Positions 4,461-59,333 of a DNA stretch of 64,000 nucleotides are shown in pieces. The position numbers and the translations under genes were made by a program. The first letter of the stretch is position 1. Every line of letters begins with the position of its first letter. Source of the DNA: an uncultured Bacteroidota bacterium (lineage in GTDB: Bacteria; Bacteroidota; Ignavibacteria; UBA10030; UBA8401); contig CALETH010000131.1 in assembly GCA_937920105.1 (NCBI GenBank), positions 6,400 through 70,399 on the forward strand. Direction: 5' to 3'. Below the pieces are notes generated by a model. That model was not told the origin of the DNA, made no database searches, and saw only the letters and a program-made list of their open reading frames with translations.

Positions 4461-4494
4461 AGACCTGTGAGGTTTTAAAAACCTCACAGGTTTT
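4461..4494. repeat. Palindromic repeat, AGAC-stem-TTTAAAA-stem-GTCT family (stem variant B)
   Basis: agacctgtgaggttttaaaaacctcacaggtttt; same architecture as copies at 7003, 18874, 24535, 26224, 41968, 59298. Confidence 0.8.
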
Positions 4495-4500
4495 ACTGTA

Positions 4501-5073
4501 TTATTCTGTTTTTTCTTTTGCAACAATAACTTTTGCGTGTCTGATAACTTTATTGTGGAGAAAATATCCTTTTTCTACTTCTTCGATAATTGTGTTTGGT
4601 GCAACATCTTCTTTTGGCATTTGCATGAGTGCATCGTGAAATTCCACGTTAAATTCTTTACCAACGGTTTCCATTGTTTTTACTCCTTGGCTTTCTAACA
4701 CTTTCATAAATTTGGAAAGTATCATTTCTACGCCTTTGTAAAATGGGTCTGAAGAAAGTGTTTGTCCCGCTTTGAGTGAACGATTGAAATCATCAATCAA
4801 TGGTAGAAATTGTGTGATGACATTTTCACTGGCAAATTTTGCCAGTGTTGCAATATCATTTTCCATGCGGCGTTTGTAGTTTTCAAATTCTGCTGCTTTG
4901 CGAAGAAGTTGGTCTTTTACTTGTGCAGTTTGTTTTTCACATTCAGATAATTGTTTTTTTACTGTTTCTACTTCTGAAAGTTCTTCTACAATTTCTTGGT
5001 CTTTCATGACATCGTTTGATGGTGGTTGTGGTGTTTCGGTATTTCCATTTATTTTTTCTTCTTCTGTTTGCAT
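4501..5073 (-). CDS. grpE: Nucleotide exchange factor GrpE
   Basis: 190 aa, GrpE-like coiled-coil plus C-terminal domain; sits between hrcA and dnaJ as in the canonical hrcA-grpE-dnaK/dnaJ arrangement. Confidence 0.9.
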   Translation of the reverse strand: MQTEEEKINGNTETPQPPSNDVMKDQEIVEELSEVETVKKQLSECEKQTAQVKDQLLRKAAEFENYKRRMENDIATLAKFASENVITQFLPLIDDFNRSLKAGQTLSSDPFYKGVEMILSKFMKVLESQGVKTMETVGKEFNVEFHDALMQMPKEDVAPNTIIEEVEKGYFLHNKVIRHAKVIVAKEKTE

Positions 5074-5090
5074 TGGTTTCTCCGTTGAGA

Positions 5091-5576
5091 TTATCGTAAT
5101 TTAAAATCATTTTTAATAAAATCGGGATAGTGTCCACCTAATTCCCAATTATCTTTTGTGTTATTTTCATTTCCTGTAAATGGTGAAGTGTTATTGTTTT
5201 TCCATGTAAATATTTGAGTTTCATCCCAGTTTTCTGTTTCAAGGTATACAATAGCATTATTCCAGTATAATTTAGAAAGTAGATTTTCAAATTTTATTAA
5301 CCAATCTTTCCAGTCATCATATACTTCTTTATACGATGCTCCAAAAGTAATGACTTGGTCTTTATATAATCCATCTCCAAATTTTACTGTTGGTGTATTA
5401 AACATTAGTTTTGTGATTTGTGGATATTCATCTTCTGTCGGTAATTCATCAATAATCATTTTATTTAATCGATGAAAAAGTAATCTATCGTTATCAAGAT
5501 GAATATTTCCACCATAATTATATCTTTTTCCAATAATTCTTCCATAGACAAAAGATTGCCATCCCATACATACCAT
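5091..5576 (-). CDS. Hypothetical Trp-rich protein inserted between hrcA and grpE
   Basis: 161 aa ORF, no recognisable motif; ATG at 5576; tightly packed in the heat-shock gene string. Confidence 0.5.
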   Translation of the reverse strand: MVCMGWQSFVYGRIIGKRYNYGGNIHLDNDRLLFHRLNKMIIDELPTEDEYPQITKLMFNTPTVKFGDGLYKDQVITFGASYKEVYDDWKDWLIKFENLLSKLYWNNAIVYLETENWDETQIFTWKNNNTSPFTGNENNTKDNWELGGHYPDFIKNDFKLR

Positions 5577-5655
5577 CCTTTAAATATTTTTATAGATAAA
5601 ACGCTGATTAATTAAGATTTTTCTTGGTAATAAATTTTACATTGTTAAATAAAGT

Positions 5656-5725
5656 ATCCCGACTTGGCGGGATGAAATTTTCTCGAAATGGATTCCCGCT
5701 AAAAACGTGCAGGAATAACACTTTT
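5656..5725. repeat. REP-like palindromic elements (tcccg-N6-cggga and gattcccgc...gcaggaat)
   Basis: gtatcccgacttggcgggatgaaa and ggattcccgctaaaaacgtgcaggaat; related copies at 13016, 34270, 34326, 47071, 50529, 57358. Confidence 0.7.
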
Positions 5726-5776
5726 CTTGTTTTAATTTTTACATCATATAAATCTTAATAATCCTAAAAATCATAA

Positions 5777-6826: not shown

Positions 6827-7002
6827 AGTTATCTTTTAGAAATTTTTCATAGTATTGCTTTTCAAAATACTCATTTTCGTAAAGTTTTACAATGATGAAT
6901 TATTTGAGCCGCTTGTAACCCTGCCAGAGTTTAATTCGCCTGTGGCGAACTGGCAGGGTTTTTAAATTCATGATTTTGTTTTTTGAATCCTTCTATAGTT
7001 TT

Positions 7003-7035
7003 AGATTTGTCAAGTTTTAAAAACTTGACAAATCT
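7003..7035. repeat. Palindromic repeat, AGAC/AGAT-stem-TTTAAAA-stem family (variant A)
   Basis: agatttgtcaagttttaaaaacttgacaaatct; the upstream hairpin aaccctgccag...ctggcagggtt (6918-6962) shares its 5' arm with the copy at 18858. Confidence 0.8.
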
Positions 7036-7046
7036 GCTTCTATTTT

Positions 7047-16403: not shown

Positions 16404-16781
16404 ATGCTTACCGATTTTGGTAGAATACTTATTTTTTTTATTGTAGGAATAATTTTCACGGCTGGTGGACTTATTACTTCGTGGTTGTTACGACCTAAAC
16501 GTCCATATCCGGCAAAACTTTCTTCGTACGAATGCGGTGAAGAAGCAACCGGAGATTCTCGAATTCAATTCAATATTCGTTTTTATATTATTGCATTAAT
16601 TTTTGTAGTGTTTGAAGTAGAAGTGGTACTGTTATTTCCGTGGGCATTAGTGTTTAAAGAGTTTGGAATGTTTGCTTTTATTGAAATGCTTATTTTTCTT
16701 TTCATTCTCATAGTTGGTTATATGTACGTGTGGAAGAAAAAAGATTTGGAATGGGATGTACCGCAACCCAAAAATTGGTAA
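16404..16781 (+). CDS. nuoA: NADH-quinone oxidoreductase subunit A
   Basis: 125 aa, 3 TM, ND3/NuoA signature (SYECGEE...FDIRFY). Confidence 0.93.
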   Translation: MLTDFGRILIFFIVGIIFTAGGLITSWLLRPKRPYPAKLSSYECGEEATGDSRIQFNIRFYIIALIFVVFEVEVVLLFPWALVFKEFGMFAFIEMLIFLFILIVGYMYVWKKKDLEWDVPQPKNW

Positions 16782-16824
16782 CAAATTAATTCATTTATCT
16801 TAATAAACAATTAAAGAGACACAA

Positions 16825-18849
16825 ATGAAAAACAAATTTTTCATATATTATATAATTGCATTATTAATAATGCCAATAACCAGTCCCGCTCAATGGGCAA
16901 AAAATATAGGTGGTAATGCTAGTGATAGAGGTAGTAGTATTGCTAATGATGGTAATGGAAATGTGTATATAACAGGGTCTTTTCGTGGGACAGCAGATTT
17001 TGATACAGGTCCAGGAACGACAAACTTGATTGGGAAAGGTTGGACTGACATATATTTTGCAAAATACGATGTTTCCGGTTTATTATTGTGGGCAAAAAGT
17101 GTTGGGAGTACTAATTCTGATGGAGGTAATAGTATTGCTGTCGATGGTAGTGGAGATGTGTATGTAACAGGTTCCTTTGAAGGAATGGCAGATTTTGACC
17201 CTGGAGTAGGAACAACAAATTTGCCTTGGGTTGGTGGTGACGATATCTTTTTTGCAAAATACAAATCTAGTGACGGTTCGCTTATTTGGGCAAAAAGTAT
17301 TGGTGCTGCTAATGGTGCTTCCGAGGGTGGTAATAGTATTGCCATAGATGGAAGTGGAAATGTCTACATAACAGGTATATTTTATGGAACAGTAGATTTT
17401 GACCCAGGGCCAGGAACAACAAATTTAACAAGTGCTGGATATGATATATTTTTTGCGAAATATAGTGGGAATGATGGTTCACTTATATGGGCAAAAAGTG
17501 TTGGTGGTACTACTGATAATGATAAAGGTAATAGTGTTGCTATAGATGGTAGTGGAAATGTCTATATAACAGGACATTTTTTTGGCACAGTAGATTTTGA
17601 CCCAGGTTCAGGAACTGCAAATTTAACGAGTGTTGGTAATTATGATATCTTTTTCGCGAAATATAGTGGTAATGACGGTTCGCTTATATGGGCAAAAAGT
17701 ATTGGTGGTGCTAGTATTGATTATTGTAGCGATATTGTTGTAGATGGTAGTGCAAATGTATATTTAACTGGATATTTTGATTATACAGCAGATTTTGACC
17801 CCAGTGCTGGAGTCGCAAATTTGACAAGTGTTGGTTATGACATTTTTTTTGCCAAATATAACTCTACGGGTTCGCTTTTATGGGTAAAAGGTATAGGGGG
17901 TGGTGGTACTGATGGTAGCGCTAGTATAGATATAGATGGAAGTGGAAATGTGTATGTAACAGGTTCTTTTCAAGGAGCGGTAGATTTTGACCCTGGAGTA
18001 GGAACGACAAGTTTAACTAGTGTTGGTGGTTCCGATATCTTTTTTGCGAAATATAATTCTACTGGTTCATTTGTGTGGGAAAAAAAAATTGGAAGTGGCG
18101 GTGACGATTTTGGTACTAGTCTTGCCTTAGATGGCAGTGGAAATGCCTATACAACAGGATATTTTAATGGAACAGCCGATTTTGACCCATCAACCAATGC
18201 AGCCGATACATTAAAATTAACCAGCAGTGATGATGATATCTTTTTTGCAAAATATAGAACTATTGATGGTCTTCTTCCCGTAGAACTTACCTCATTTACA
18301 GCAACATCAAAAAATAGTGCTGTAGAGTTATCATGGAGTACAGTGAGTGAAATAAATAATTTTGGATTTGAAATTGAGAAAGCAGAAATCCATAATCAAT
18401 CATCAGAAAAACAGTGGAAAAAAATTAGTTTTGTACAGGGAAACGGAACAAGCAATATCCAACACCATTACACATTTATTGATAAAAATGTTACTACAGG
18501 AAAATTTATATATCGATTAAAACAAATTGATATGGATGGAAAGTTTACGTACAGCGAAGAAATAGAAGGAAATGCAGAAATTCCAAAAGAGATAACATTA
18601 TCCCAAAATTATCCAAACCCCTTTAATCCTGTAACAACAATTAATTATGAAATCCCACAAACCGGAAAAGTGTATTTAAAAGTGTACAATGTGTTAGGAG
18701 AAGAAGTCGCAACACTGGTGAATGGAATGCAGGAAGCGGGAAGATATTCTACACAATTTGACGCATCGAAATATTCTTCTGGAATATATTTTTATAAACT
18801 CACATCGAATAATTATATATTAGTAAAATCAATGGTATTGGTGAAATAA
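16825..18849 (+). CDS. Secreted SBBP-repeat beta-propeller protein with T9SS C-terminal sorting domain
   Basis: Signal peptide; about 10 repeats of GNSIAxDGSGNVYxTGxFxGTxDFDPGxGTTNLTSxGxxDIFFAKY (SBBP-like); C-terminal Por_Secre_tail-like domain (NYPNPFNP...GIYFYKL). Confidence 0.8.
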   Translation: MKNKFFIYYIIALLIMPITSPAQWAKNIGGNASDRGSSIANDGNGNVYITGSFRGTADFDTGPGTTNLIGKGWTDIYFAKYDVSGLLLWAKSVGSTNSDGGNSIAVDGSGDVYVTGSFEGMADFDPGVGTTNLPWVGGDDIFFAKYKSSDGSLIWAKSIGAANGASEGGNSIAIDGSGNVYITGIFYGTVDFDPGPGTTNLTSAGYDIFFAKYSGNDGSLIWAKSVGGTTDNDKGNSVAIDGSGNVYITGHFFGTVDFDPGSGTANLTSVGNYDIFFAKYSGNDGSLIWAKSIGGASIDYCSDIVVDGSANVYLTGYFDYTADFDPSAGVANLTSVGYDIFFAKYNSTGSLLWVKGIGGGGTDGSASIDIDGSGNVYVTGSFQGAVDFDPGVGTTSLTSVGGSDIFFAKYNSTGSFVWEKKIGSGGDDFGTSLALDGSGNAYTTGYFNGTADFDPSTNAADTLKLTSSDDDIFFAKYRTIDGLLPVELTSFTATSKNSAVELSWSTVSEINNFGFEIEKAEIHNQSSEKQWKKISFVQGNGTSNIQHHYTFIDKNVTTGKFIYRLKQIDMDGKFTYSEEIEGNAEIPKEITLSQNYPNPFNPVTTINYEIPQTGKVYLKVYNVLGEEVATLVNGMQEAGRYSTQFDASKYSSGIYFYKLTSNNYILVKSMVLVK

Positions 18850-18873
18850 ATTCATAAACCCTGCCATAGTTAG

Positions 18874-18905
18874 AGACCTGTCAAGTTTAAAAACTTGACA
18901 AGTCT
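18874..18905. repeat. Palindromic repeat AGAC-stem-TTTAAAA-stem-GTCT (variant A)
   Basis: agacctgtcaagtttaaaaacttgacaagtct, preceded by aaccctgccatag (half of the 6918 hairpin). Confidence 0.8.
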
Positions 18906-18916
18906 AATAAAAAATC

Positions 18917-19411
18917 ATGGGACTTCTTGATAAACAAATTAACAGCAGCAATATCGTCATCACATCGTTAGATAATTTGATGAATTGGGCAAGACTTTCT
19001 TCTCTTTGGCAAATGCAATTTGGATTAGCATGTTGTGCAATAGAAATGATGGGAGCAGCAGCATCAAATTATGATATTATGCGTTTCGGAGTTATTCCGC
19101 GAGCAACCCCACGTCAATGTGATGTGATGATTGTTTCCGGAACGGTAACCTTAAAAATGGCATCACGTGTGAAACGTTTGTATGACCAAATGTCTGAACC
19201 ACGTTATGTTATTTCTATGGGAAGTTGTTCTAATTGCGGAGGTCCATATTGGGAACACGGTTATCATGTGTTGAAAGGAGTGGATAGAGTAATTCCTGTA
19301 GATGTGTACGTTCCCGGATGTCCGCCAAGACCAGAAGCATTGTTGGAAGGTGTCATTAAATTACAAGAAAAAATTCGCAGTGAAGGTGTTGGAAAGAAGA
19401 AAGTAGCGTAA
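18917..19411 (+). CDS. nuoB: NADH-quinone oxidoreductase subunit B
   Basis: 164 aa, Fe-S cluster N2 cysteines ([20 protein letters not shown]). Confidence 0.95.
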
Positions 19412-19442
19412 TTTTTTTTATTGATAATAAAAAGGTATTATT

Positions 19443-19649
19443 ATGAAATTTACTATCACAATCAATCGTGATGAAGATGGGATGTATATTGCAGAATGTC
19501 CATCTATTCCAGGTTGCTTTAGTCAAGGAAAAACCGAAGAAGAAGCACAAAAAAATATTCAAGAGGCAATCAAAGAATGTTTAGATGTGCGAGCAGAAAA
19601 AGGAATGCCCTTAACTATTTCCACTCGCCAAGTTGAGGTTGCTATTTAA
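19443..19649 (+). CDS. hicB: HicB-family antitoxin (short, UPF0150-like)
   Basis: 68 aa, DGMYIAECPSIPGCFSQGKTEEEAQKNIQEAI matches the HicB N-terminal fold; TAATG junction with hicA. Confidence 0.7.
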   Translation: MKFTITINRDEDGMYIAECPSIPGCFSQGKTEEEAQKNIQEAIKECLDVRAEKGMPLTISTRQVEVAI

Positions 19650-19879
19650 TGCCCCAAGTGCCACTTCTTCGTCCAAAAGATATTATTAAAGTTTTTGAAA
19701 AACTTGGCTGGGAAGTTGTACGTCAACGAGGAAGTCATATCATTCTTACCAAAGAAGGGAGTATTTCAACATTGTCAGTTCCTAATCATTCTGAAGTTGC
19801 TCGTGGTACATTAAGAGGTCTTATTCAAAAAGCAGGAATAACAATAGAACACTTTATCGAAGTTTTACAAACGTTATGA
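19649..19879 (+). CDS. hicA: HicA-family mRNA interferase toxin
   Basis: 76 aa, ...VRQRGSHIILTKEG... matches the HicA motif; its stop overlaps the nuoC start (ATGA). Confidence 0.75.
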   Translation: MPQVPLLRPKDIIKVFEKLGWEVVRQRGSHIILTKEGSISTLSVPNHSEVARGTLRGLIQKAGITIEHFIEVLQTL

Positions 19880-20352
19880 TTACTCCACAAGAAGTATTTG
19901 ATATACTACAATCCAAGTTTGGTGAGAAAATTTTGGAGTTACAACTTCAAACACATAATCCATTTATAAAAATTTCATCAGATGGATTATTAGAAATTGC
20001 ACAATTTCTTCGAGATGATGAACGATTTCAATTTGATTATCTTTCTTGCCTTTCAGGGATGGATTATGAAAAAACGCTTGGAGTTGTGTATCATCTTTTT
20101 TCTATGAAAAAAAAACATAAGATTGTTATCAAGGTTGAAGTGTCAAAAGAAAATCCGATAATTCCATCCGTAGAAAAAATTTGGAAAACCGCAAACTGGC
20201 ACGAACGCGAAGCATACGATTTATTTGGAATTATTTTTTCTGAACATCCGGATTTACGACGGATTCTTTTACCGTATGATTGGGAAGGACATCCACTACG
20301 AAAAGATTATCAAGTTCCGGAATATTATAATGGAATGAAAGTTCCGTATTAA
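19876..20352 (+). CDS. nuoC: NADH-quinone oxidoreductase subunit C
   Basis: 158 aa, 30 kDa subunit signature (EREAYDLFGIIFSEHPDLRRIL). Confidence 0.93.
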   Translation: MITPQEVFDILQSKFGEKILELQLQTHNPFIKISSDGLLEIAQFLRDDERFQFDYLSCLSGMDYEKTLGVVYHLFSMKKKHKIVIKVEVSKENPIIPSVEKIWKTANWHEREAYDLFGIIFSEHPDLRRILLPYDWEGHPLRKDYQVPEYYNGMKVPY

Positions 20353-20361
20353 AAATATTTT

Positions 20362-20628
20362 ATGAAATATCTCCTATGGTTTTTTGTCGCTATTAATGCA
20401 GCAATCGGAATTAAATACCTTTTGAGTTCTTTTGGTGTATTCAAAATGCGATATTATCCATTTATTACAGAATTTATTTTTGCTGTTGTACTGCTTGGTA
20501 CGGCTGCGGTGGCATTATATATTTATCATTATAAAGAAATCATGTGGTTATCATTTCTTATTGTTTGTTCACCACTTATGCTTTTGTGTATAGTAGTATT
20601 TTTTTCAATGGTAACAGGTAAATATTAA
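20362..20628 (+). CDS. Small hypothetical membrane protein (3 TM)
   Basis: 88 aa hydrophobic ORF wedged between nuoC and nuoD. Confidence 0.45.
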   Translation: MKYLLWFFVAINAAIGIKYLLSSFGVFKMRYYPFITEFIFAVVLLGTAAVALYIYHYKEIMWLSFLIVCSPLMLLCIVVFFSMVTGKY

Positions 20629-20674
20629 CTTATAAACTATATTTTTATCAACTAATTATACAGGGAGTTATAAT

Positions 20675-21196
20675 ATGAAAAGCATGTTCTTCGTCATCGC
20701 AATTATTTTTTTCACACTTCCAATCTATGCACAAGTACAAGTAGAGGAAGGTCAGGAAGATGAATGCTATCAAGAAATTATTCAAGATATGAACAAAGAA
20801 ATAGCAGAAGCACCAACGAACGCAGAGTTGTATATCACACGTGGCAATGCGAAATATTATTTAGATGATTTTCGTGGAGCAATGTCTGACTACAAACAAG
20901 CATTAGAAAATAATGAAAGTTCTGCAGAAGCATATTGCCGGCTTGGAATGGTGAAGTTGCAATTTCTCAATCAATTTGAAGAATCGCTTGCAGATTTTGA
21001 AAAATCCATTGAGTTAAATGAAAAATATGCTCTTGCGTATTATGGTAGAGGTTTAGCAAAAATTGCCAAACAAGAAGATGATAAAGAAGGCGGTTGTGCA
21101 GATTTAAGCAAAGCCGGAGAATTAGGAGAAATCAAAGCATATCAAGCATTAAAAAATTTGTGTAAAAGTTCTAAAGATGTAGCAAAAGAAGAATAA
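20675..21196 (+). CDS. Secreted TPR-repeat protein
   Basis: Signal peptide MKSMFFVIAIIFFTLPIYAQ, then TPR-like helical repeats. Confidence 0.6.
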   Translation: MKSMFFVIAIIFFTLPIYAQVQVEEGQEDECYQEIIQDMNKEIAEAPTNAELYITRGNAKYYLDDFRGAMSDYKQALENNESSAEAYCRLGMVKLQFLNQFEESLADFEKSIELNEKYALAYYGRGLAKIAKQEDDKEGGCADLSKAGELGEIKAYQALKNLCKSSKDVAKEE

Positions 21197-21211
21197 ATTT
21201 TACATATCTGC

Positions 21212-22366
21212 ATGTCTAAAGGAGCGCATCTACATAACATTGCAACAAAAAATCTTCGTACCGAGGAAATGGTTCTCAATATGGGACCGCAACATCCATC
21301 AACGCATGGGGTGCTGCGGCTTGAACTTCTTGTTGATGGAGAAATTGTTGTTGATGTCATTCCCCACATAGGTTACCTTCATCGCTGTTTTGAAAAACAC
21401 GCCGAACAAATGCTCAACTATCAACAAATCATTCCGTATGTTGATAGGATGGATTATGTTGCTTCCATGACGAATGAGTTTGCATTTGTTACCGCCGCAG
21501 AAAAACTTTTCAATATTCAAGTTCCCGAACGAGTAGAATACATTCGCGTAATTATGGCGGAGTTGCAACGCATCGCCAGTCATCTTATTGCTGTTGGAAC
21601 CTACGGAATTGATATTGGAGCGTTCACACCATTTTTATATTGTTTCCGTGACCGCGAAAAAATTTTAGATTTATTTGAGATGACCTCCGGTGCACGGCTT
21701 CTTTACAATTATATGTGCATTGGCGGATTGTATCATGATTTGCCAAATGGATTTATTGAAAAAGCAAAAGAATTTTGTCAATACTTTAGAAAACAATTAA
21801 AAGATTTTAATGATTTATTGACATACAATGAAATTTTTATAAACCGAACAGCAAATGTGGGAATCCTTCCTGTAGATGTTGGTATTAATTATGCATGCAG
21901 TGGTCCAATGTTGCGGGGTTCCGGTGTAGATTGGGATTTGCGCCGTGATGACCCATATTCAATTTATCATAAATTGGAATGGGAAGTTTGTGTTGCAAAA
22001 GGGGAAGTGGGAAAGATTGGTGATTGTTGGAATAGACATTTTGTGCGTGTGCGAGAAATGGAGCAAAGCATTCTTATAATAGAGCAAGCGTTGGCACAAC
22101 TTCCGGAAGGAGATGTGAAATCCGCAATTCCTAAAAGAATACGACCGTTGCCTGCAGAAATTTACGTACGCACAGAAGCACCACGTGGAGAATTGGGATT
22201 TTATATTGTGAGTGATAATTCTACATCACCGTACCGTGTGAAAGCACGTTCATCTGCATTTGTGAACTTGAGTGTGATTGCAGAAATTGCTCGTGGTGCA
22301 ATGCTTGCCGATATGGTTGCCATTATCGGAAGTATTGATATTGTGTTGGGTGAAGTGGATAGATGA
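21212..22366 (+). CDS. nuoD: NADH-quinone oxidoreductase subunit D
   Basis: 384 aa, 49 kDa subunit ([16 protein letters not shown]). Confidence 0.96.
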
Positions 22367-22439
22367 TGTTTAATGGAAAGTTGCAAATGAGGAATTGATA
22401 ATATAAAAAATAATATACTTTTAAATAAGTGAGGTATTT

Positions 22440-22691
22440 ATGATAACAGCAAAAGAAGCCACACAAGCAGCAATAAAATATTTCCAAGAAGTTTTTAATG
22501 GCCGTTATGATAATTTAGCAGTAGAAGAAATCGAATTATCTTCTGATGAAAAATTTTGGTCTATTACACTTGGTTATAATATGATGTCAACAATGACAAT
22601 GCTTGTACCTACATCGCAACGAACATATAAAGAATTTAAAGTTTCTGCTGAAAGTGGTAAAGTTACTGCGATGAAAATCCATAATGTTTAA
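22440..22691 (+). CDS. Small hypothetical protein, possibly PepSY-like
   Basis: 83 aa; weak resemblance to the PepSY fold pattern (LAVEEIEL...FKVSAESGKVTAMKI). Confidence 0.35.
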   Translation: MITAKEATQAAIKYFQEVFNGRYDNLAVEEIELSSDEKFWSITLGYNMMSTMTMLVPTSQRTYKEFKVSAESGKVTAMKIHNV

Positions 22692-22696
22692 TATAT

Positions 22697-23207
22697 ATGG
22701 CGGATTATTATATTGAATTGTTAAAAAAATATTATTCTAAAGGTATACTTATAGATACAAATTTACTTTTGATATTTATTATTGGAATGTGTGATAAAAA
22801 TTATATCGCAACATTTAAGCGAACAAAGACATTTTCGTCTGAAGATTATGATATTCTTTTTCATATACTTCAACCATTTTGTAAAATCATAACAACACCA
22901 AATATTCTTACAGAAGTTAGTAATCATCTCGGATTTTTAGAGGAGTCTTTGAAACAGAAAGTTTTGAAAACTTATTTCTAATAATATTAATTCTTATTTT
23001 GCGGAAAGTTATCATAAAAGCAATTTTCTTTCTTCAAAAGATTTTTTTCATAAATTTGGACTTACGGATTCCAGCATTATTGAAGAAGCAAAAAATAAGT
23101 ATTTAGTTCTTACGGAAGATTTAAAATTAACCAATTATCTCCAATACCAAAAAATAGATGTCATGAATTTTCATCATTTGCAAACAATAAATTGGTATTC
23201 AACATAA
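22697..23207 (+). pseudogene. PIN-domain (VapC-like) nuclease gene disrupted by a +1 frameshift near 22968-22981
   Basis: Track ORF 22697..22981 encodes the PIN N-terminal motif (GILIDTNLLL). The C-terminal half (…FAESYHKSNFLSSKDFFHKFGLTDSSIIEEAKNKYLVLTEDLKLTNY…, stop about 23207) continues in a different frame with no start codon. Confidence 0.65.
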
Positions 23208-23242
23208 TATAAACCCATTTCACTCACTTAAATTTATCTATT

Positions 23243-24373
23243 ATGGAAAACTCATACACAGAAACAACATCAAAATCTTGGGGAAATAGAATAATGGAAT
23301 CTCTCAAAGGGATTCTTTTCGGACTTCTTCTTGTTGCACTTGCATTTATCGTTTTATGGTGGAACGAAGGACGTGCCGTAAAAACTGCAAAAAGTTTAGA
23401 AGAAGGTGCATCCAGCGTTGTAACAATTTCTTCATCTGCTGTTGCAAAAGAAAACGAGCAAAAACTTGTTCATCTTACCGGAATGGCAACAACAAATGAA
23501 ATATTAATTGATGCAGATTTTAAAATTTCTCTTCCTGCAATTAAACTTAGAAGAATTGTGGAAATGTATCAATGGAAAGAAGAAAAATCTGAAAAGAAAG
23601 AAAAGAAAATGGGCGGCTCGGAAGAAACGGTAACAACGTATTCTTATAAAAAAGTGTGGGATGATAATATTATTTCTTCTGAAAATTTTAAACAAAAAGA
23701 AGGACATACTAATCCAACAACATTTCAATATTCTTCATCTGAAAAAATTGCACAAAATGTTCAAGTTGGTGGCTTTACACTTTCACCATCACTCATTCAA
23801 AAAATAAATAAATACGAAAAACTCAATCCGCAAACATTTGATTCTACACAAAAATCTTCGCAAGAAATTTATATTGGAAGAGGAAATATTAATTCACCGG
23901 AAATTGGAGATGTAAAAATCTCTTTTGAAGCAGTAAAGCCAATCGAAGTAAGCATTGTTGCAAAACAAGTAGGAAATTCTTTTGAACCATATAAAGCAGA
24001 AGCCGGCGGTGAAGTAGAATTACTGGAGTATGGAAATGTTCCTGCCGCAAAAATGTTTTCTGAAGCACAATCCACCAATACAACAATGACATGGATTTTC
24101 CGCATTGCTGGAATTGCAATGATGTTTTTTGGAATTATGACAATTTTTAAACCACTCGTTACCGTTGCTGATGTGTTACCATTTCTCGGAAGTATATTAA
24201 ATATGGGACTCGGAATTTTTTCTGCTGTAATTTCATTTTCATTAAGTTTTATTACCATTGCCCTTGCGTGGTTATTTTACCGTCCTGTGTTGGGAATTAT
24301 TTTATTAGTTATTGGTATTGGAATTTTTGTGGGAATAAAATTTATTTCACCGAAAAAGAAAACAGCGAAATAA
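23243..24373 (+). CDS. TMEM43-like (DUF1625-type) membrane protein
   Basis: 376 aa, N-terminal TM (LFGLLLVALAFIVLWWNEGR), large soluble domain, C-terminal cluster of TM helices; architecture resembles bacterial TMEM43 homologues. Confidence 0.5.
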   Translation: MENSYTETTSKSWGNRIMESLKGILFGLLLVALAFIVLWWNEGRAVKTAKSLEEGASSVVTISSSAVAKENEQKLVHLTGMATTNEILIDADFKISLPAIKLRRIVEMYQWKEEKSEKKEKKMGGSEETVTTYSYKKVWDDNIISSENFKQKEGHTNPTTFQYSSSEKIAQNVQVGGFTLSPSLIQKINKYEKLNPQTFDSTQKSSQEIYIGRGNINSPEIGDVKISFEAVKPIEVSIVAKQVGNSFEPYKAEAGGEVELLEYGNVPAAKMFSEAQSTNTTMTWIFRIAGIAMMFFGIMTIFKPLVTVADVLPFLGSILNMGLGIFSAVISFSLSFITIALAWLFYRPVLGIILLVIGIGIFVGIKFISPKKKTAK

Positions 24374-24380
24374 GATTTGT

Positions 24381-24405
24381 AGGGACGGTTGCAAAACCGT
24401 CCTTG
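24381..24405. repeat. Hairpin with GGTTGCAAAACC core
   Basis: agggacggttgcaaaaccgtccttg; sister copy agaatggttgcaaaaccattcca at 2664-2686. Both lie just 3' of plus-strand stop codons. Confidence 0.6.
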
Positions 24406-24416
24406 GAAATTTTTAG

Positions 24417-24523
24417 AGAAACGTTCCCTCTATTTTGAAAAAAATCCAAAAGATGGAAAATTGTGGAAGAAAATAAAAGACGAATTTCTTAAAGCAAAAA
24501 ACTATAAGAGAATAGAAAAATAG
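24417..24523 (+). other. Degenerate duplicate of the 3' end of the antitoxin gene 24614..24841
   Basis: gaaacgttccctctattttgaaaaaaatccaaaagatggaaaattgtggaagaaaataaaagacgaatttcttaaagcaaaaaactataag aligns at about 85% with 24751-24841 (…RSLYFEKNPEGGKLWEEIKDEFLKGKKL). Confidence 0.75.
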
Positions 24524-24534
24524 AAACTGAAATA

Positions 24535-24567
24535 AGATTTGTCTAGTTTCAAAAACTTGACAAATCT
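24535..24567. repeat. Palindromic repeat AGAT-stem-TTTAAAA-stem-ATCT (variant A)
   Basis: agatttgtctagtttcaaaaacttgacaaatct. Confidence 0.8.
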
Positions 24568-24613
24568 AATCATAGTAATCCTATAAATTAAGGTCAAATC
24601 AAGAGGCAAATGT

Positions 24614-24841
24614 ATGCAAACACATCTTCGTAATAAAATAAATAAATTGAGCGTTTCTGAAAAAATTTTACTCGTTGAAGAACTTTGGGATGATATTGCT
24701 CGTAAGAATGAAACTTTTGAATTATCACAAAGTCAAAAAAGTGAATTAGAGAAACGCTCACTCTATTTTGAAAAAAATCCAGAAGGTGGAAAATTGTGGG
24801 AAGAAATAAAAGACGAATTTCTTAAAGGCAAAAAATTATAA
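24614..24841 (+). CDS. Putative addiction-module antitoxin (TIGR02574-like) paired with ParE-type toxin
   Basis: 75 aa, LSVSEKILLVEELWDDI...SQSQKSELEKR...NPEGGKLWEEIKDEF matches the 'putative addiction module component' family pattern. Confidence 0.7.
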   Translation: MQTHLRNKINKLSVSEKILLVEELWDDIARKNETFELSQSQKSELEKRSLYFEKNPEGGKLWEEIKDEFLKGKKL

Positions 24842-25134
24842 TGTCTATTCGTTTTCATCCTGAATCTGAAAAAGAATTAAAAGAGTCCGTTTATTGGTAT
24901 GAATATCAACGTAAAGGTCTTGGATTTGAATTTCTTTTTTGTGTTGATGAAGCCATAGAACAAATAAAAAATCGTCCTCAAATGTATCCACTCGTTACAG
25001 AAAAAACTCGTCGTATAGTTGTTAAAAGATTTCCCTTTGCTATTTTTTACGAAACAAATAAATCCAGTATTTATATTTTGGCTATTTTTCATTTACGACG
25101 CAATCCAAAAGAATGGAAAAATAGAAAATCATAG
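24841..25134 (+). CDS. ParE/RelE-family toxin (plasmid stabilisation system protein)
   Basis: 97 aa, IRFHPESEKELKESVYWYE...FPFAIFYE...IYILAIFHLRRNPKEW; TAATG overlap with the antitoxin gene. Confidence 0.75.
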   Translation: MSIRFHPESEKELKESVYWYEYQRKGLGFEFLFCVDEAIEQIKNRPQMYPLVTEKTRRIVVKRFPFAIFYETNKSSIYILAIFHLRRNPKEWKNRKS

Positions 25135-25171
25135 TCATATCATTACAATCCTATAAATCATAGTTTAAGCC

Positions 25172-26218
25172 ATGCCCGAGTTTCTTACCAATATTTTTGG
25201 AAAAACAATAATTGTTCACATTATCATGGGAGCAGTACCGTTATTATTTATACTTCCGTACGCTCTTGTAGTTATTTATGTGGAAATGAAACTTTCTTCC
25301 CACATGCAAAACCGTGTGGGATATATGAGAACCGGTTGGCATGGAACACTGCAACCTTTTGCAGATATTTTCAAACTCTTACAAAAAGAAAATATTGTTC
25401 CAGCAGAAGCAGATAAAATTTTATTTTCATTAGCACCATTTATAGTTTTTATCGGAATGTATGCTGCGTACGCAGTGCTGCCTTTTGGAAGCGGATATGT
25501 TGGCAGCGAAATGGAAATCGGAATTTTTTATCTACTCGCAGTTTCTTCATTAGTGGTTGTAGGAATTTTGATGGCTGGCTGGTCATCCAATAATAAATGG
25601 TCATTATTAGGAGCAATGCGTTCTGTTGCACAAATTGTAAGTTACGAAATTCCGGCAGCATTAGCATTGCTTGGAGTGGTGATGCTTGCCGGAACAATGA
25701 ATACCGAAATGTTAAGTGCAATGCAATCCGGTGGAATGCACGAATGGTTTATTTTTGGCGGAACATTACCATTGTGGAAAAAATTTACAATCATTCCCTT
25801 TATGTTTATAATTTTTTTGGTGTATCTCGTTTCATCAATGGCAGAGGTAAATCGGACACCATTTGATTTGCCCGAAGCAGAATCTGAATTAGTGCAGGGT
25901 TACAATACAGAATACAGCGGAATGAAATTTGCTATTTTTTATTTAGCAGAATATGGAAATTTATTTTTAATTTCTGCTATTGCAGTAATTGTATTTTTTG
26001 GCGGATATACAAGTCCGTTTGGAAAATTTCTTTCCGGAGGTGTGTGGGATGTTTTTTGGTTTATCACCAAAGGAATGTTGTTAGTACTTATTAATATTTG
26101 GATTCGTTGGACTCTTCCTCGTTTGCGAGTTGACCAACTCATGTACGTTTCATGGAAAGTCCTTACACCATTTGCTTTGGTTGGAATTATTGTTATCGGA
26201 TTTATTTTGGTTGTGTAA
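25172..26218 (+). CDS. nuoH: NADH-quinone oxidoreductase subunit H
   Basis: 348 aa polytopic membrane protein with ND1/NuoH signature (SEMEIGIFYLLAVSSL, RTPFDLPEAESELVQGYNTEYSG). Confidence 0.96.
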   Translation: MPEFLTNIFGKTIIVHIIMGAVPLLFILPYALVVIYVEMKLSSHMQNRVGYMRTGWHGTLQPFADIFKLLQKENIVPAEADKILFSLAPFIVFIGMYAAYAVLPFGSGYVGSEMEIGIFYLLAVSSLVVVGILMAGWSSNNKWSLLGAMRSVAQIVSYEIPAALALLGVVMLAGTMNTEMLSAMQSGGMHEWFIFGGTLPLWKKFTIIPFMFIIFLVYLVSSMAEVNRTPFDLPEAESELVQGYNTEYSGMKFAIFYLAEYGNLFLISAIAVIVFFGGYTSPFGKFLSGGVWDVFWFITKGMLLVLINIWIRWTLPRLRVDQLMYVSWKVLTPFALVGIIVIGFILVV

Positions 26219-26223
26219 GTTTT

Positions 26224-26256
26224 ATATTTGTCAAGTTTTTAAAACTTGACAAATCT
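26224..26256. repeat. Palindromic repeat stem-TTTTTAAAA-stem (variant A)
   Basis: atatttgtcaagtttttaaaacttgacaaatctgtat. Confidence 0.8.
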
Positions 26257-26277
26257 GTATGATATAACTTTATAAGT

Positions 26278-26814
26278 ATGCAATACTTTATCAACATATA
26301 TAAATCACTCCGTTCAGTTATTGTTGGGTTGAAAATTACTGCGAAAAATCTTTTTAAGCCAACAGTAACGATTCAATATCCGGATGTGAAAAAAGCAATG
26401 CCGGAGCGGACAAGAAATCGTTTGTATGTCAATATGGATGATTGTATTGGCTGCGACCAATGTGCAATTGCATGTCCGGTAAACTGCATTACCATAGAAA
26501 CAATCAAATCAACACCCGAAGATAATCTTGGTGTAACATCAACAGGACACAAAAAGAAACTTCATGTTCCCGTGTTTGATATTGATATTGCGAAATGTTG
26601 TTATTGTGGATTGTGCGTTCCACCATGTCCCACAGATTGTATTGTGATGACACCGGTGTACGAATTTTCTGAATTTGATAGACAAAATTTAATTTATAAT
26701 TTCAGCACGATGACCCCTTCTGAAATTGAAACAGCAAAACTCAAAGCAAAGAAAATGGAAGAAGAAATTGCTGCGAAAAAATCAGCACAAAATTCTACAA
26801 CTGGTTCTGTATAA
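26278..26814 (+). CDS. nuoI: NADH-quinone oxidoreductase subunit I (2x[4Fe-4S] ferredoxin)
   Basis: CIGCDQCAIACP and CCYCGLCVPPCP motifs. Confidence 0.95.
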   Translation: MQYFINIYKSLRSVIVGLKITAKNLFKPTVTIQYPDVKKAMPERTRNRLYVNMDDCIGCDQCAIACPVNCITIETIKSTPEDNLGVTSTGHKKKLHVPVFDIDIAKCCYCGLCVPPCPTDCIVMTPVYEFSEFDRQNLIYNFSTMTPSEIETAKLKAKKMEEEIAAKKSAQNSTTGSV

Positions 26815-26816
26815 AC

Positions 26817-26862
26817 TCCCCTCTGTGTATTGGCAAGAGCAATGGAGAGAGGGGTGTGTCCA
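26817..26862. repeat. Repeat family P hairpin
   Basis: cccctctgtgtattggcaagagcaatggagagaggggtgtgtcc, compare 10741-10795. Translation of this element produces the spurious N-terminal extension of the nuoJ ORF in the track. Confidence 0.75.
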
Positions 26863-26907
26863 AAAAATAAGAAGAAAAAATTAAGAATTAAGAAAGATAC
26901 TATTACA

Positions 26908-27420: not shown

Positions 27421-27722
27421 TAACACTTCATCATTTTTTATTTGTTAGTATTATTCTTTTTGGATTAGGTGTGTATGCAGTTTTAACACGTCGCAATGCA
27501 GTGATGGTATTGATGGGAATAGAACTTATTCTCAATGCAGCCAATCTCAATTTTGTTGCTTTTTCTCGTTATGGTGGATTGAAATTAGATGGACAAATGT
27601 TTGCGTTGTTTGTGATTATTCTTGCAGCAGCAGAAGCCGCTGTTGCATTAGCTATCATTCTCAATATTTATCAACGCTTCAATACTATTAATGTGGATGA
27701 TGTTGATACGTTGAAAGAGTGA
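27417..27722 (+). CDS. nuoK: NADH-quinone oxidoreductase subunit K
   Basis: 101 aa, 3 TM, ND4L/NuoK (GIELILNAANLNFVAFS). Confidence 0.95.
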   Translation: MITLHHFLFVSIILFGLGVYAVLTRRNAVMVLMGIELILNAANLNFVAFSRYGGLKLDGQMFALFVIILAAAEAAVALAIILNIYQRFNTINVDDVDTLKE

Positions 27723-27865
27723 CCCTGATTTTCAAGATTACAAGATTACGATGATGTAATTAACAAAATTTTTACTTTGCATCTTAGCGACTTTGCGAGA
27801 CAAAACAAATCCGCGAAAATCATAAAAATCTTAACAATCAGTGCTTTATCAAATAATATAATTTA

Positions 27866-35954: not shown

Positions 35955-35962
35955 AATAATAA

Positions 35963-41935: not shown

Positions 41936-41967
41936 ATTAAGCAAGATTTTTTTCATCTATACAGCCA

Positions 41968-42002
41968 AGACCTCACAGGTTTTTAAAACCTGTGAGGTCT
42001 TG
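41968..42002. repeat. Palindromic repeat AGAC-stem-TTTAAAA-stem-GTCT (variant B, opposite orientation to 4461)
   Basis: aagacctcacaggtttttaaaacctgtgaggtctt. Confidence 0.8.
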
Positions 42003-47050: not shown

Positions 47051-47070
47051 AAAAGATATAAAATTTTAAA

Positions 47071-47102
47071 TTTGTCATCCCGTAATAACAGGATGACAAA
47101 TC
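47071..47102. repeat. REP-like palindrome tgtcatcc-N-ggatgaca
   Basis: tttgtcatcccgtaataacaggatgacaaatc. Confidence 0.65.
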
Positions 47103-47111
47103 TTTATAGCA

Positions 47112-50528: not shown

Positions 50529-50597
50529 GTCATTCCTGCGAAAGCAGGAATCCAGAAATGCTCAAAAGCGGAAAGAATAACATTTTTTCCGCTTTTG
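50529..50597 (+). terminator. REP-like palindrome followed by rho-independent terminator downstream of nrdJ
   Basis: gtcattcctgcgaaagcaggaatcc, then aaaagcggaaagaataacattttttccgctttt. Confidence 0.7.
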
Positions 50598-56038: not shown

Positions 56039-56676
56039 AATATTTTCCTCAAAAAAAGAAAAAACGTACTCCCCAACAATTACACTACATCGTTTTTTAT
56101 AAACCCTTCAATGTACTTTGTCAGTTTACGGATAACTCTATTCCTAAAAGAGCAATATTATCAGATTTTGGAAATTTTCCATCGGATGTATATCCAGTTG
56201 GACGTTTGGATTTTGATAGTGAAGGTTTGCTTCTTCTTACGAATGATAATATTCTCAAACACAAATTACTTTCTCCAAAATTTGAACACCCGCGAACATA
56301 TCTTGTACAAGTAGAAAAAATTCCCGATAACACTGCCATAGAAAAATTACAAAAGGGAGTTGTTATTGAAGGCAAGAAAACAAAACCTGCAAAAGTAGAA
56401 TTATTGTTGAATGAACCAGAATTACCACCACGTAATCCTCCAATTCGATTTCGAAAATATATTCCAACATCATGGTTAAAAATTACTCTTACGGAAGGAC
56501 GTAACAGACAGGTAAGAAAAATGACTGCATGTGTTGGACATCCAACATTACGATTGGTAAGAATTACTTTTGGAAATATTACTCTTGATTCACTTGTTCC
56601 GGGTGAGATGAGAAAGCTGAGTGAGGAAGAGATAAAATTCTTAAAGAATTCAGAAAATCAATACTTGTCAACTTGA
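56032..56676 (+). CDS. RsuA/RluE-family rRNA pseudouridine synthase (no S4 domain)
   Basis: VYPVGRLDFDSEGLLLLTNDN catalytic Asp motif; the stop codon lies inside a short palindrome tacttgtcaacttgacaagt. Confidence 0.8.
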   Translation: MLKYFPQKKKKRTPQQLHYIVFYKPFNVLCQFTDNSIPKRAILSDFGNFPSDVYPVGRLDFDSEGLLLLTNDNILKHKLLSPKFEHPRTYLVQVEKIPDNTAIEKLQKGVVIEGKKTKPAKVELLLNEPELPPRNPPIRFRKYIPTSWLKITLTEGRNRQVRKMTACVGHPTLRLVRITFGNITLDSLVPGEMRKLSEEEIKFLKNSENQYLST

Positions 56677-56708
56677 CAAGTTCAAAATAGTTTCGTACCA
56701 TTCTTATT

Positions 56709-56954
56709 ATGAAAACATTACCAGTTGGAGAACTTAAAACTCATTTTTCGGAAGCAATGGAAAGTGTACGCAAAGGAGAAAAAATTTGTGTACTGTATGG
56801 AAAAAAGAAAAAACCAATAGCCATGATAGTTCCGTACACCATACAAAAAAAGAAACAAAGAAAAATCGGTTTGCTTGATGGAAAAGTAAAAGTAAAATTT
56901 TCTCCTCATTTCACGATAACAGAAGAAGAATTTTTACATGAAATATCTTCTTGA
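56709..56954 (+). CDS. Phd/YefM-type antitoxin (VapB-like)
   Basis: 81 aa, MKTLPVGELKTHFSEAMESVRKGEKICVLYGKKKKPIAMIVP; overlaps the downstream PIN gene. Confidence 0.65.
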   Translation: MKTLPVGELKTHFSEAMESVRKGEKICVLYGKKKKPIAMIVPYTIQKKKQRKIGLLDGKVKVKFSPHFTITEEEFLHEISS

Positions 56955-57336
56955 TACGCATACACTTATTTGGTCTATAACAGATTCTCGTAGACTTTCT
57001 CCTCGTATTCTTGAATTACTACGAAATTCTGATAATGAAATTTTTGTTTCTGTGATTTCATTGTGGGAAATTTCATTAAAGTATAAACTCGGAAAACTAA
57101 TATTGAATAATTTATCTCCCGAAGATTTTCCTTCTCTTATCAAAAAATTACACTATGAACTTATTACATTGACGGGAGAAGAAGTGAGTACTTATCATTT
57201 ACTTAACGAACACACTCACAAAGACCCTTTTGATAGAATGTTGGCTTGGCAGGCAATACAACGAAAAATTGTTGTTATTACAAAAGATTCAAAGTTTGAA
57301 CTTTTTACTCCATTAGGTTTAGAGATTTTTTGGTAA
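56938..57336 (+). CDS. vapC: PIN-domain toxin VapC
   Basis: 132 aa, MKYLLDTHTLIW...SVISLWEISLK...ITKD acidic quartet pattern. Confidence 0.8.
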   Translation: MKYLLDTHTLIWSITDSRRLSPRILELLRNSDNEIFVSVISLWEISLKYKLGKLILNNLSPEDFPSLIKKLHYELITLTGEEVSTYHLLNEHTHKDPFDRMLAWQAIQRKIVVITKDSKFELFTPLGLEIFW

Positions 57337-57357
57337 AACGTTTTTGATATTGTCTAT

Positions 57358-57401
57358 AAGCGGACTTGTCCCGTTTACACGGGATGAAAATCCGCTTTTT
57401 T
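57358..57401 (+). terminator. Compound hairpin plus T-run
   Basis: aagcggacttgtcccgtttacacgggatgaaaatccgctttttt; the inner tcccg-N6-cggga is the same motif as at 5656. Confidence 0.65.
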
Positions 57402-57588
57402 ATTTTTTTGTAGATGCTAAAAATCCATCACACTGTAATACAGGCAATCGCGGATATTTTGGAAATGCTTTATCCTCTTTATTTTTTTCACATAAATGAA
57501 AAATACTTCCACGAGTATTTTTTATGATGGTGTGAAAAGAGCAGTCTTTACACAATCCTATTTTATCATCGGTACTTTTACGTTCCAT
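57400..57588 (-). CDS. Small Cys-containing hypothetical protein (uncertain)
   Basis: 62 aa with CKDC...HLC...C spacing; overlaps hutU 3' end by 31 nt; could be spurious. Confidence 0.25.
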
Positions 57589-59177
57589 TGTTTTGCATTT
57601 TTTATTGCACGTTCATAACCTGCATCAGCATGTCGGATAATTCCCATTCCCGGGTCGTACGTTAGTACACGTTCTAATCGGGCTTCGGCATCTTTAGTTC
57701 CATCGGCAACAACCACCATTCCCGCATGAAGAGATAAACCAATTCCCACACCGCCACCGTGATGCACACTTACCCAACTTGCTCCGCCAACGGCATTTAA
57801 AAGAGCATTCAAAATTGGCCAATCAGCAATAGCATCGCTGCCGTCTTTCATTTTTTCCGTTTCGCGATTTGGTGATGCAACCGAACCACAATCCAAATGG
57901 TCTCTTCCAATAACAATTGGGGCGCTGACTTTTCCTTTGGCAACAAGTGTGTTAAAAATCTTTCCCATCTTTGCACGTTCTCCGTATCCTAACCAGCAAA
58001 TGCGAGCGGGAATCCCTTGAAAAGAAATTTGTTTTTGTGCTTTTTCAATCCACGTACATAATTGTTTATTTTCTGGAAATGCTTTGAGAATTGCTTCATC
58101 GGTGCGGTAAATATCTTCAGGGTTTCCGGAAAGTGCGACCCAACGAAAAGGTCCTTTCCCATCACAAAAGAGTGGACGAATATATTCAGGAACAAATCCC
58201 GGAATATCAAACGCATTTTTTAGACCGTTGGCAAGTGCTTCTCCGCGAATATTATTTCCGTAATCAAAAACAACAGCACCTTTTTTTTGCAAAGTCAGCA
58301 TTGCCTTTACATGTTCTGTGATGGATTGTTGTGCAAGTGCAATATATTTTTTTGGATTTTTTTTGCGGAGTTCTACTGCTTTTGTGTAGGTCATTCCCGC
58401 AGGAACATATCCGTTTAATGTATCATGTGCGGAAGTTTGGTCTGTAACAATGTCTGGTAAAAATTTTCCTTTTGCAATTTGTGGAATTATTTCTGCGGCA
58501 TTTCCTAATAATCCAACAGAAAGCGGTTGTTTTTTTTCTTTTGCTTGCTGAATAATTTTTAATGCTTCTTCAAGAGAAGTTGTGAACACATCCAAATATT
58601 TTGTTTGCAATCTTTTTTTAATACGTTCTTCATCAACTTCTATAGCAAGACATGCAGCACCGTTCATTGTTGCAGCGAGTGGTTGTGCACCGCCCATTCC
58701 GCCAAGTCCGGCAGTGAGAAGAAATTTTCCGGCAAGTGTTCCGTTAAAATATTTTTGTGCAGCAGCGGCAAAGGTTTCGTAGGTTCCTTGCACAATTCCT
58801 TGCGAGCCGATGTATATCCAACTTCCAGCCGTCATTTGTCCGTACATTGTTAACCCGAGTGCTTCAAGTCTGCGAAATTCATTCCATGTTGCCCAATGTG
58901 GTACGAGCATAGAATTAGAAATTAATACTCGTGGTGCATTGGTGTGCGTGCGAAAAATTCCGACAGGTTTTCCGGATTGGATAAGAAGTGTTTCATCGTT
59001 CTCTAAAGTTTTTAAACTTTTTACAATTGCTTCATAACATTCCCAGTTGCGTGCGGCTTTTCCTGTTCCGCCGTACACAATAAGTTCATTGGGATTTTCT
59101 GCAACTTCTGGGTTGAGGTTGTTTTGGAGCATTCGGAGTGCGGCTTCTTGTAGCCAGCCTTTACAGGTGAATTTCAT
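57558..59177 (-). CDS. hutU: Urocanate hydratase
   Basis: [26 protein letters not shown]-terminus and NAD-binding [13 protein letters not shown] at 59177 preferred; the track ORF extends to TTG 59201. Confidence 0.93.
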
Positions 59178-59297
59178 AATATTTTTGACCATGATTTTCA
59201 AGATTAAAGGATTATTATGATTTGAATTGTGTAAGATGTGAATTAAATGATAACATTTTTTAATTATTATCTTTTTGTATTAGAAAATAACTGTATA

Positions 59298-59333
59298 TAG
59301 ACTACAAAAAATTTAAAAACTTTTGTAGTCTCA
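59298..59333. repeat. Palindromic repeat AGAC-stem-TTTAAAAA-stem-GTCT (variant C)
   Basis: tagactacaaaaaatttaaaaacttttgtagtctca in the divergent hutU / response-regulator intergenic region; a second imperfect palindrome actattgtcttttataagacgatagt follows. Confidence 0.7.

Follow-up and report, generated by a model that had tools for sequence, protein, structure and literature searches.

A dispersed family of 33-nt palindromes in an uncultured Bacteroidota genome, probably of REP/REPIN type, and its association with RAYT-like transposase genes

Repetitive extragenic palindromic sequences (REPs), REP doublets forming hairpins (REPINs) and REP-associated tyrosine transposases (RAYTs) are well described (PMC3116915, PMC5581495). 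RAYT-like subclasses in Bacteroidetes were reported by Quentin et al. 2018 (PMC6006769), including subclass 2.6 with ‘atypical secondary structures’ and no GTAG; subclass 2.4, from various phyla, shows in-frame REP insertions within the transposase gene. Both belong to TnpA-Y1 class 2 and equal Bertels groups 4 and 5, and for the 2.1 line no REPs were found (PMC6006769). Untagged, self-complementary repeats flanking RAYT-like genes were described as the TIRYT/TIRtron systems by Di Nocera et al. 2013 (PMC3733652). Here we analysed a 64-kb stretch of DNA (in the following, the window; contig CALETH010000131.1 of assembly GCA_937920105.1) from an uncultured Bacteroidota bacterium, in which a family of 33-nt palindromes is dispersed. 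According to the evidence presented below, this is most probably a repeat family of the REP/REPIN type that was spread by a RAYT. Nearly all knowledge of REP/RAYT biology comes from Enterobacteria and Pseudomonas and their GTAG-tagged elements, in which the tag is thought to guide cleavage by the RAYT.

The palindrome family in the window and in other genomes

A palindrome scan of the window, which required arms of 12 nt or longer and allowed a single mismatch and a loop of up to 4 nt, found thirteen palindromes, compared with a mean of 2.5 and a maximum of 7 in 30 dinucleotide shuffles; six of the thirteen belong to one family. The same six were detected by a covariance model (R1, from alignment A2) that was built of 37 distinct copies from other genomes and contains no window sequence; searched with filters off on both strands, R1 gave these six strong copies 35-52 bits and E values of 4e-8 to 1e-13. 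For the scores quoted copy by copy below, E lies between 2e-9 and 1e-13. Their folding energies as single-stranded DNA range from -10 to -19 kcal/mol (z-scores -5 to -9.6), and their density in the window is about one per 10 kb. An earlier reading of the bare letters (the original prediction) had taken these hairpin-forming palindromes for a true repeat family, and the shuffles and R1 bear this out.

To look beyond the window, a degenerate pattern that covers both main variants of the window was run against a collection with a single genome for each species and yielded at least 117 loci in Bacteroidota, Rhodothermota/Balneolota, Chloroflexota and Gammaproteobacteria. Among the matches listed, 77 loci were from all major classes of Bacteroidota (mean GC 40%), 20 from Gammaproteobacteria (Methylococcales and Beggiatoa/Thiomargarita-type; 41%), 13 from Chloroflexota (58%), 6 from Rhodothermota/Balneolota (47%) and one was unclassified (GC 49%). 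The consensus of the 127 full-flank copies among these matches is AGACCTGTCAGGTTTnnAAAACCTGACAGGTCT. Its AGACC/GGTCT flanks are conserved in these copies, though the outer five bases on each side had been left out of the pattern, and both pairing and conservation end abruptly at the edges of the 33 nt, with nothing conserved outside. The outer pair 2-32 covaries in the same set (GC 87, AT 21, CG 7, TA 3). In the alignment of the 37 distinct foreign copies, 96% of the cells are paired and double changes occur in 13 of the 15 pairs; the stem covariation claimed in the original prediction is thereby upheld with sequences from other genomes. The stem variants of the family include TTGTCAAG and CTGTGAGG; a metagenome scan for the former, which is specific to the window, returned a single, unrelated contig. 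At two of the foreign loci (L038 and L053, from two Winogradskyella species) the palindrome flanks match in reverse orientation; the copy seems to have persisted in orthologous position, as would be expected under vertical inheritance.

The 33-mer is composed of two 15-nt units (consensus AGACCTGTCAGGTTT) that are inverted around a 3-nt centre and form a 15-bp hairpin in single-stranded DNA. Read from the sequence, each 15-nt arm is itself a mini-palindrome with the pairs A3-T13, C4-G12, C5-G11 and T6-A10 and a loop of 3 nt. To judge by this anatomy, the 33-mer resembles a doublet of inverted REPs with a minimal spacer, the layout of a REPIN. The REP-like unit also occurs in other arrangements, namely in swapped order (L121) and with the units some 31 nt apart (L131). 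The stem variants GTC, GTG and CAC of the window, at stem positions 7-9, coincide with the loop of the small unit, so the matched arms may stem from doublet formation or correction and not from selection for pairing alone.

Short repeated inverted-repeat elements in an A/T-rich genome (the window has about 33% GC) could likewise be miniature inverted-repeat transposable elements left behind by a DDE-type insertion sequence, or palindromes arisen by chance. The excess over the shuffles, with six palindromes in one family, and the E values of the independent model speak against chance. A miniature element fits poorly as well, since the unit is a palindrome of merely 33 nt with a 3-nt centre and no internal sequence, no related insertion sequence was found, and no target-site duplication was detected: direct repeats of 1-6 nt in the flanks were no commoner than in re-paired controls, with 5-nt matches as an exception (3 observed, control mean 0.3). 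In either form, we consider this explanation extremely unlikely.

Association with RAYT-like transposase genes

In foreign loci with two copies, the palindromes bracket a gene that encodes a protein of about 185 aa with a HUH motif, and this Y1_Tnp-like gene was present beside the palindrome in 6 of the 117 8-kb loci listed. These six loci were combined with homologues from Flavobacterium, Aequorivita and Cryomorpha, whose genomes were picked independently of the palindrome, and with a locus from an Anaerolineales metagenome-assembled genome (MAG). All ten RAYT-like loci, each from another genome than the window's, carry family palindromes on their flanks, with stems that are specific to the genome. 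Flanking on both sides was observed in Flavobacterium sp. 90 (four copies with the stem CCTAACAGG), Aequorivita (consensus stems, with the units swapped in one copy), Cryomorpha (stem CCCAAAGG) and the Anaerolineales MAG (Chloroflexota, 55% GC; AGACCTGACAGGTTTTTGGGAAACCTGTCAGGTCT). The eleventh locus, L131 from a 68%-GC genome, contains the units AGACCCTTCGGGTTT / AAACCCGAAGGGTCT as inverted pairs at the wider spacing mentioned above. Palindromes on the flanks of RAYT-like genes are the ‘REPtron’ arrangement by which REP/RAYT systems are defined.

The associated proteins have both the HUH motif and the Y-x3-NP motif of class 2: the residues N54-H-F-H57, Y116 and N120 are invariant in 29 sequences, and P121 is nearly so. 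In a profile search of the PDB the best match was TnpA-REP of E. coli (4ER8, E 3.9e-4) with both motifs aligned; a comparison of the single sequence with the PDB was uninformative. Homologues number in the thousands, and several of them have been named ‘REP element-mobilizing transposase RayT’ by JGI. In addition to the flanks, the palindrome is found within the RAYT-like genes. The Anaerolineales gene has a further copy in frame just past the HUH motif; the in-frame copies located after this motif comprise positions 4376-4408 of L129 and those read from the peptides of proteins P0249, P0269 and P0261. Since 33 nt is a multiple of three, copies can sit in frame inside open reading frames (ORFs), and when translated they appear as repeated peptides in several of the RAYT-like proteins, e.g. 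DLSGSENLTG and GFKNLEG. In three loci from Tamlana, Algibacter and Winogradskyella (L029, L032 and L002), the RAYT-like gene adjoins hemF, encoding coproporphyrinogen oxidase, with the palindrome in between; there, naive ORF calling does not stop at the palindrome and joins hemF and the RAYT-like gene into one.

In analogy to the REP/RAYT systems that have been characterised, one would expect a RAYT-like Y1 HUH transposase to be encoded by a single-copy gene elsewhere in the genome to which the window belongs. Recognising the hairpin in single-stranded DNA, the enzyme would cleave and religate it and in this way copy the palindrome into intergenic spacers without duplicating the target site. 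Copies would then be inherited vertically and drift, in the present case towards A/T, with both arms staying matched. The original prediction had preferred selection on structure to simple duplication; the evidence rather favours a copied, mobile-type repeat tied to a RAYT-like transposase.

Several observations weigh against this reading. Neither tblastn nor hmmsearch found a RAYT-like gene in the 64-kb window, and the presence of one in the same genome, its catalysis, the mobility of the palindromes and any effect on mRNA are presumed from the analogy. The match of the proteins to the NCBIfam model REP_Tyr_transpos (NF047646; E 1e-14 to 1e-15, 52-56 bits) stays below the cut-off of 80, and the match to Pfam Y1_Tnp (PF01797) is weak and near the threshold (20.4 and 24.7 bits, cut-off 23). 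The link to RAYT-like genes was examined in Bacteroidota and Chloroflexota. Finally, the canonical GT[AG]G tag was not found at the foot of the hairpin, which instead consists of AGAC paired with GTCT, and the composition of position -5 in the 127 copies is A44 C34 G12 T37.

Two traits are unusual for a REP: there is no GTAG tag, and the sequence is almost the same in different phyla. Bacteroidota, Rhodothermota/Balneolota, Chloroflexota (58% GC) and Gammaproteobacteria of the giant sulfur and methanotrophic kinds may have in common both a nearly identical doublet, with the arms AGACCTGTCAGGTTT / AAACCTGACAGGTCT, and a single clade of RAYT-like proteins. We tentatively propose, with slightly less than even confidence, that this is a GTAG-less, exceptionally conserved and perhaps horizontally spreading REPIN-RAYT partnership that follows a different recognition rule. 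If true, it would offer a natural experiment on the persistence of ‘domesticated’ repeats. An untagged, A/T-rich family of 33 nt that is capable of in-frame insertion could help to define what a RAYT recognises, and its near-identity over several phyla could show whether REP/RAYT systems move between phyla.

Individual copies, their neighbours and other possible roles

The six strong copies, none of which is assigned a strand, differ in stem and setting. The copy at 4461..4493 (stem CCTGTGAGG/CCTCACAGG; R1 50.3 bits; -13.9 kcal/mol as single-stranded DNA, z -7.6) lies in the 66-nt spacer between grpE and dnaJ, which are encoded on the minus strand, 7 nt past the grpE stop codon. At 7003..7035, between clpB and hrcA, the copy has perfect 16-nt arms with an AT-shifted stem (TTTGTCAAG/CTTGACAAA; 50.9 bits, -14.0 kcal/mol, z -7.0). 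The copy at 18874..18905 is 32 nt long with one unpaired position (38.9 bits) and is located between nuoB and the gene for an SBBP protein with a type IX secretion system (T9SS) sorting tail; the identical sequence occurs in metagenome contig L118. With one arm mismatch, the copy at 24535..24567 (39.2 bits) separates a TMEM43-like gene from an antitoxin/ParE pair. Within the nuo operon, the copy at 26224..26256 (42.6 bits) begins 5 nt past the nuoH stop codon and ends 21 nt ahead of the nuoI start codon. Arms that are perfect over 18 nt belong to the copy at 41966..42002 (core 41968-42000; 52.2 bits, -19 kcal/mol, z -9.6) between a cytidylyltransferase-like gene and a TPR/CHAT gene; compared with copy 4461, its three central stem pairs are flipped (CCTCACAGG...CCTGTGAGG). 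The left edge of copy 26224 (26220-26231), in its A/T-shifted variant, reads TATATTTG and stands about 45 nt ahead of nuoI. The -7 promoter consensus of Bacteroidetes is TAnnTTTG, which this stretch fits, and a palindromic repeat might create such promoter-like boxes by chance.

All eight sequences listed in the original prediction were located at the positions given there, but the count of at least eight copies has to be qualified: besides the six strong ones, R1 scored one as a weak relative and one as doubtful. The weak relative at 59299..59331 (17.2 bits, E ~0.02; -8.1 kcal/mol), in the divergent spacer between hutU and a LytTR-regulator gene, has kept the outer AGAC/GTCT and the central TTTAAAAA, with a different and imperfect A/T stem. 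Of the three stem versions that had been distinguished, each is indeed complementary within a copy, with the reservation that the third is this imperfect stem of a 17-bit match. The doubtful ‘short form’ at 56662..56682 (ACTTGTCAAcTTGACAAGT; 14.2 bits, E ~0.2; -6.3 kcal/mol, z -3.6) shares sequence with the stop codon of an RluA-like ORF and precedes a Phd/PIN pair. Loss of the apical GTTTnnAAAC from a family copy could account for it, or it could be an operator of the Phd/PIN pair or a chance palindrome. Another weak relative, absent from the earlier list, was found at 47068..47103 between two small minus-strand ORFs (16.6 bits, E ~0.035); its outer arms AAATTTGTCA...TGACAAATCT are as in the window variant and its apical part is different.

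As regards the gene setting, the hrcA-grpE-dnaJ cluster and a nuo (NADH dehydrogenase) operon with nuoB, C, D, H and I are present in the window, and ORFs downstream of nuoI were assigned nuoJ to nuoL by position. The T9SS sorting tail was seen on one encoded protein. The GrpE protein has an exact match in public metagenomes, and its next relatives, labelled ‘Bacteroidota bacterium’, are 63-64% identical. In the two nearest relatives available (L126 and L128), grpE and dnaJ overlap or are 2 nt apart with no palindrome at the junction, and no family copy was found in the 33 kb sampled from the two, which fits an insertion in the lineage of the window. Between hrcA and grpE, the window contains a 161-aa ORF without a Pfam match (5091-5576, minus strand); the gap between these genes is only 10-48 nt in L126 and L128.

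The claim that the copies are intergenic holds for all six strong ones. For the foreign copies among the matches listed, where genes were called crudely as longest ORFs, convergent spacers outnumbered divergent ones by 29 to 6, and in co-directional spacers the copy was nearer the upstream stop codon in 45 of 57 cases. The median distance was 22 nt from the 3' end of a gene and 63 nt from a 5' end, and some copies lay in frame inside ORFs. The neighbours in other genomes were unrelated housekeeping genes: 114 ORFs gave 135 Pfam families, none of them more than three times. On this census, a preference for one type of neighbour, e.g. toxin-antitoxin or mobile genes, was rejected.

Stable hairpins just past stop codons, enriched between convergent genes, would also be expected of transcription terminators or mRNA 3'-end structures selected at the RNA level, in which case the likeness of the copies to one another would be mere resemblance. 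Classical REPs do influence mRNA decay and termination secondarily, and copy 7003 fits a loose terminator pattern. That fit, however, is on the strand opposite to the genes, and of the three strong copies in the 20 kb scanned (out of six in all) 7003 alone shows it. Stems of the family are A/T-rich, and at least 6 T within 8 nt downstream were counted in only 5 of the 127 copies, in agreement with the earlier statement that the GC-rich stem and U-tract of classic terminators are missing. Moreover, copies occur within operons (grpE/dnaJ, nuoH/nuoI and before nuoB), where termination would be harmful, and neither a common sequence in several phyla nor a position beside RAYT-like genes would be expected of functional terminators. 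We therefore regard this explanation as unlikely, albeit the least remote of those considered. In Rfam 15, a tRNA-Met alone passed the gathering score for the window, and at E values up to 5 chance-level matches to miRNA models overlapped two copies. Classical terminators are also in use in this genome: hairpins with G+C-richer stems and T-runs were observed at 3219-3255, 35961-35995, 50563-50597 and 6917-6960, one of the four directly after the tRNA-Met. The element at 6917-6960 gave a weak R1 match (20 bits) and, by its G+C-rich hairpin and T-run, appears to be a terminator of the ordinary kind; its foot (AACCCTGCCAG) is faintly like the palindrome family.

The prevalence of convergent spacers also bears on the question whether the palindromes are dyad operators of a conserved dimeric DNA-binding regulator, as the original prediction had suggested as one option. 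The dyad symmetry is perfect and conservation is high even in the 58%-GC Chloroflexota; copy 24535 lies 46 nt upstream of the antitoxin gene, and the short form 56662 lies upstream of the Phd/PIN pair. It is hard to reconcile with operators, however, that the copies follow stop codons and lie between convergent genes far more often than they occupy divergent promoter regions, and that some are in frame within ORFs. In addition, the neighbours share no function, and both half-sites change jointly and differently in each genome. Such a role is accordingly very improbable, as much so as an origin from insertion sequence remnants or chance.

Finally, the palindromes had been said to lie often at boundaries of inserted cargo, and they could be recombination or insertion sites (attC- or dif-like) for cassettes such as toxin-antitoxin pairs. 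The nuo operon (16404-34242) is interrupted by at least five inserts: the gene for the T9SS-tailed SBBP protein before nuoB, HicB/HicA between nuoB and nuoC, a small ORF and a TPR protein gene between nuoC and nuoD, and two small ORFs, the TMEM43-like gene and the antitoxin/ParE pair between nuoD and nuoH. Copies 18874 and 24535 adjoin inserts, and directly to the left of the latter a 44-aa ORF fragment (24389-24523) duplicates the C-terminal ~30 residues (EKRSLYFEKNP.GGKLW..IKDEFLK) of the antitoxin (24614-24841) that precedes ParE; this truncated duplicate may be the trace of an earlier rearrangement at the site. A gene pair in L091 that resembles a toxin-antitoxin module by look alone has a copy on either side. 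Still, these two are the only ones of the six strong copies next to an insert, most insert boundaries in nuo have no palindrome, and copies occupy plain operon junctions (grpE/dnaJ, nuoH/nuoI, clpB/hrcA). Neither an integrase nor a cassette array nor an attC core motif was seen, and in other genomes the neighbours are ordinary housekeeping genes without a recurring family. The claim about cargo boundaries is thus unsupported, and a role as cassette sites is considered very unlikely. Apart from the palindromes, metagenome contig L119 (1-978) is 100% identical to the window (18793-19544) through nuoB and diverges inside hicB, perhaps because the toxin-antitoxin insert varies between strains or because the assembly is chimeric.

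If the REP/REPIN-type reading is followed, the palindromes of the window are to be masked or annotated as REP-type repeats and not as regulators, terminators or cassette borders.

Comparison with described REP/RAYT systems

Neither the palindrome nor its core words are contained in the REP table of Quentin et al. 2018 (PMC6006769), a full-text literature search for the core sequence gave only irrelevant matches, and the RepRanger paper has general palindrome counts only. Judged by its sequence, the family thus appears to be new, although of the established REP/RAYT type.

With TnpA-Y1 class 2 (PMC6006769) the RAYT-like proteins share the Y...NP signature, and as in subclass 2.4 palindrome copies are inserted in frame within the genes, after the HUH motif. 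The motifs NHFH, LFQ and YIHLNP differ from the exact consensus of subclasses 2.4 and 2.6 and resemble the 2.1 line too; they fit no published consensus line exactly. The TIRYT/TIRtron systems (PMC3733652) are similar in that their RAYT-like genes are flanked by GTAG-less repeats, some of which are self-complementary and form moderately abundant dispersed families. Unlike the 33-mer, however, TIRs are longer and either share a GGGGWSAS motif or are mutually unrelated, and none of them equals the palindrome described here.

The closest known system is the REP/REPIN-RAYT system of Escherichia and Pseudomonas (TnpA-REP; Nunvar 2010; Bertels and Rainey 2011, PMC3116915; Ton-Hoang 2012; PDB 4ER8). 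In contrast to it, the foot of the window family is AGAC instead of GT[AG]G, and the stem is A/T-rich with a TTTnnAAA apex and almost no doublet spacer, whereas classical REPs are G+C-rich. A classical REP is confined to one genus or species, while nearly the same 33-mer occurs in at least three phyla, and the associated proteins score below the NCBIfam RAYT cut-off. In common with the Escherichia and Pseudomonas elements, the palindromes are short and intergenic, often just past genes, and form inverted doublets with a long hairpin; they leave no target-site duplication, in other genomes than the window's they are found on the flanks of a gene for a small Y1 HUH transposase (motifs HUH and Y...NP), and each genome with its RAYT has a repeat variant of its own.

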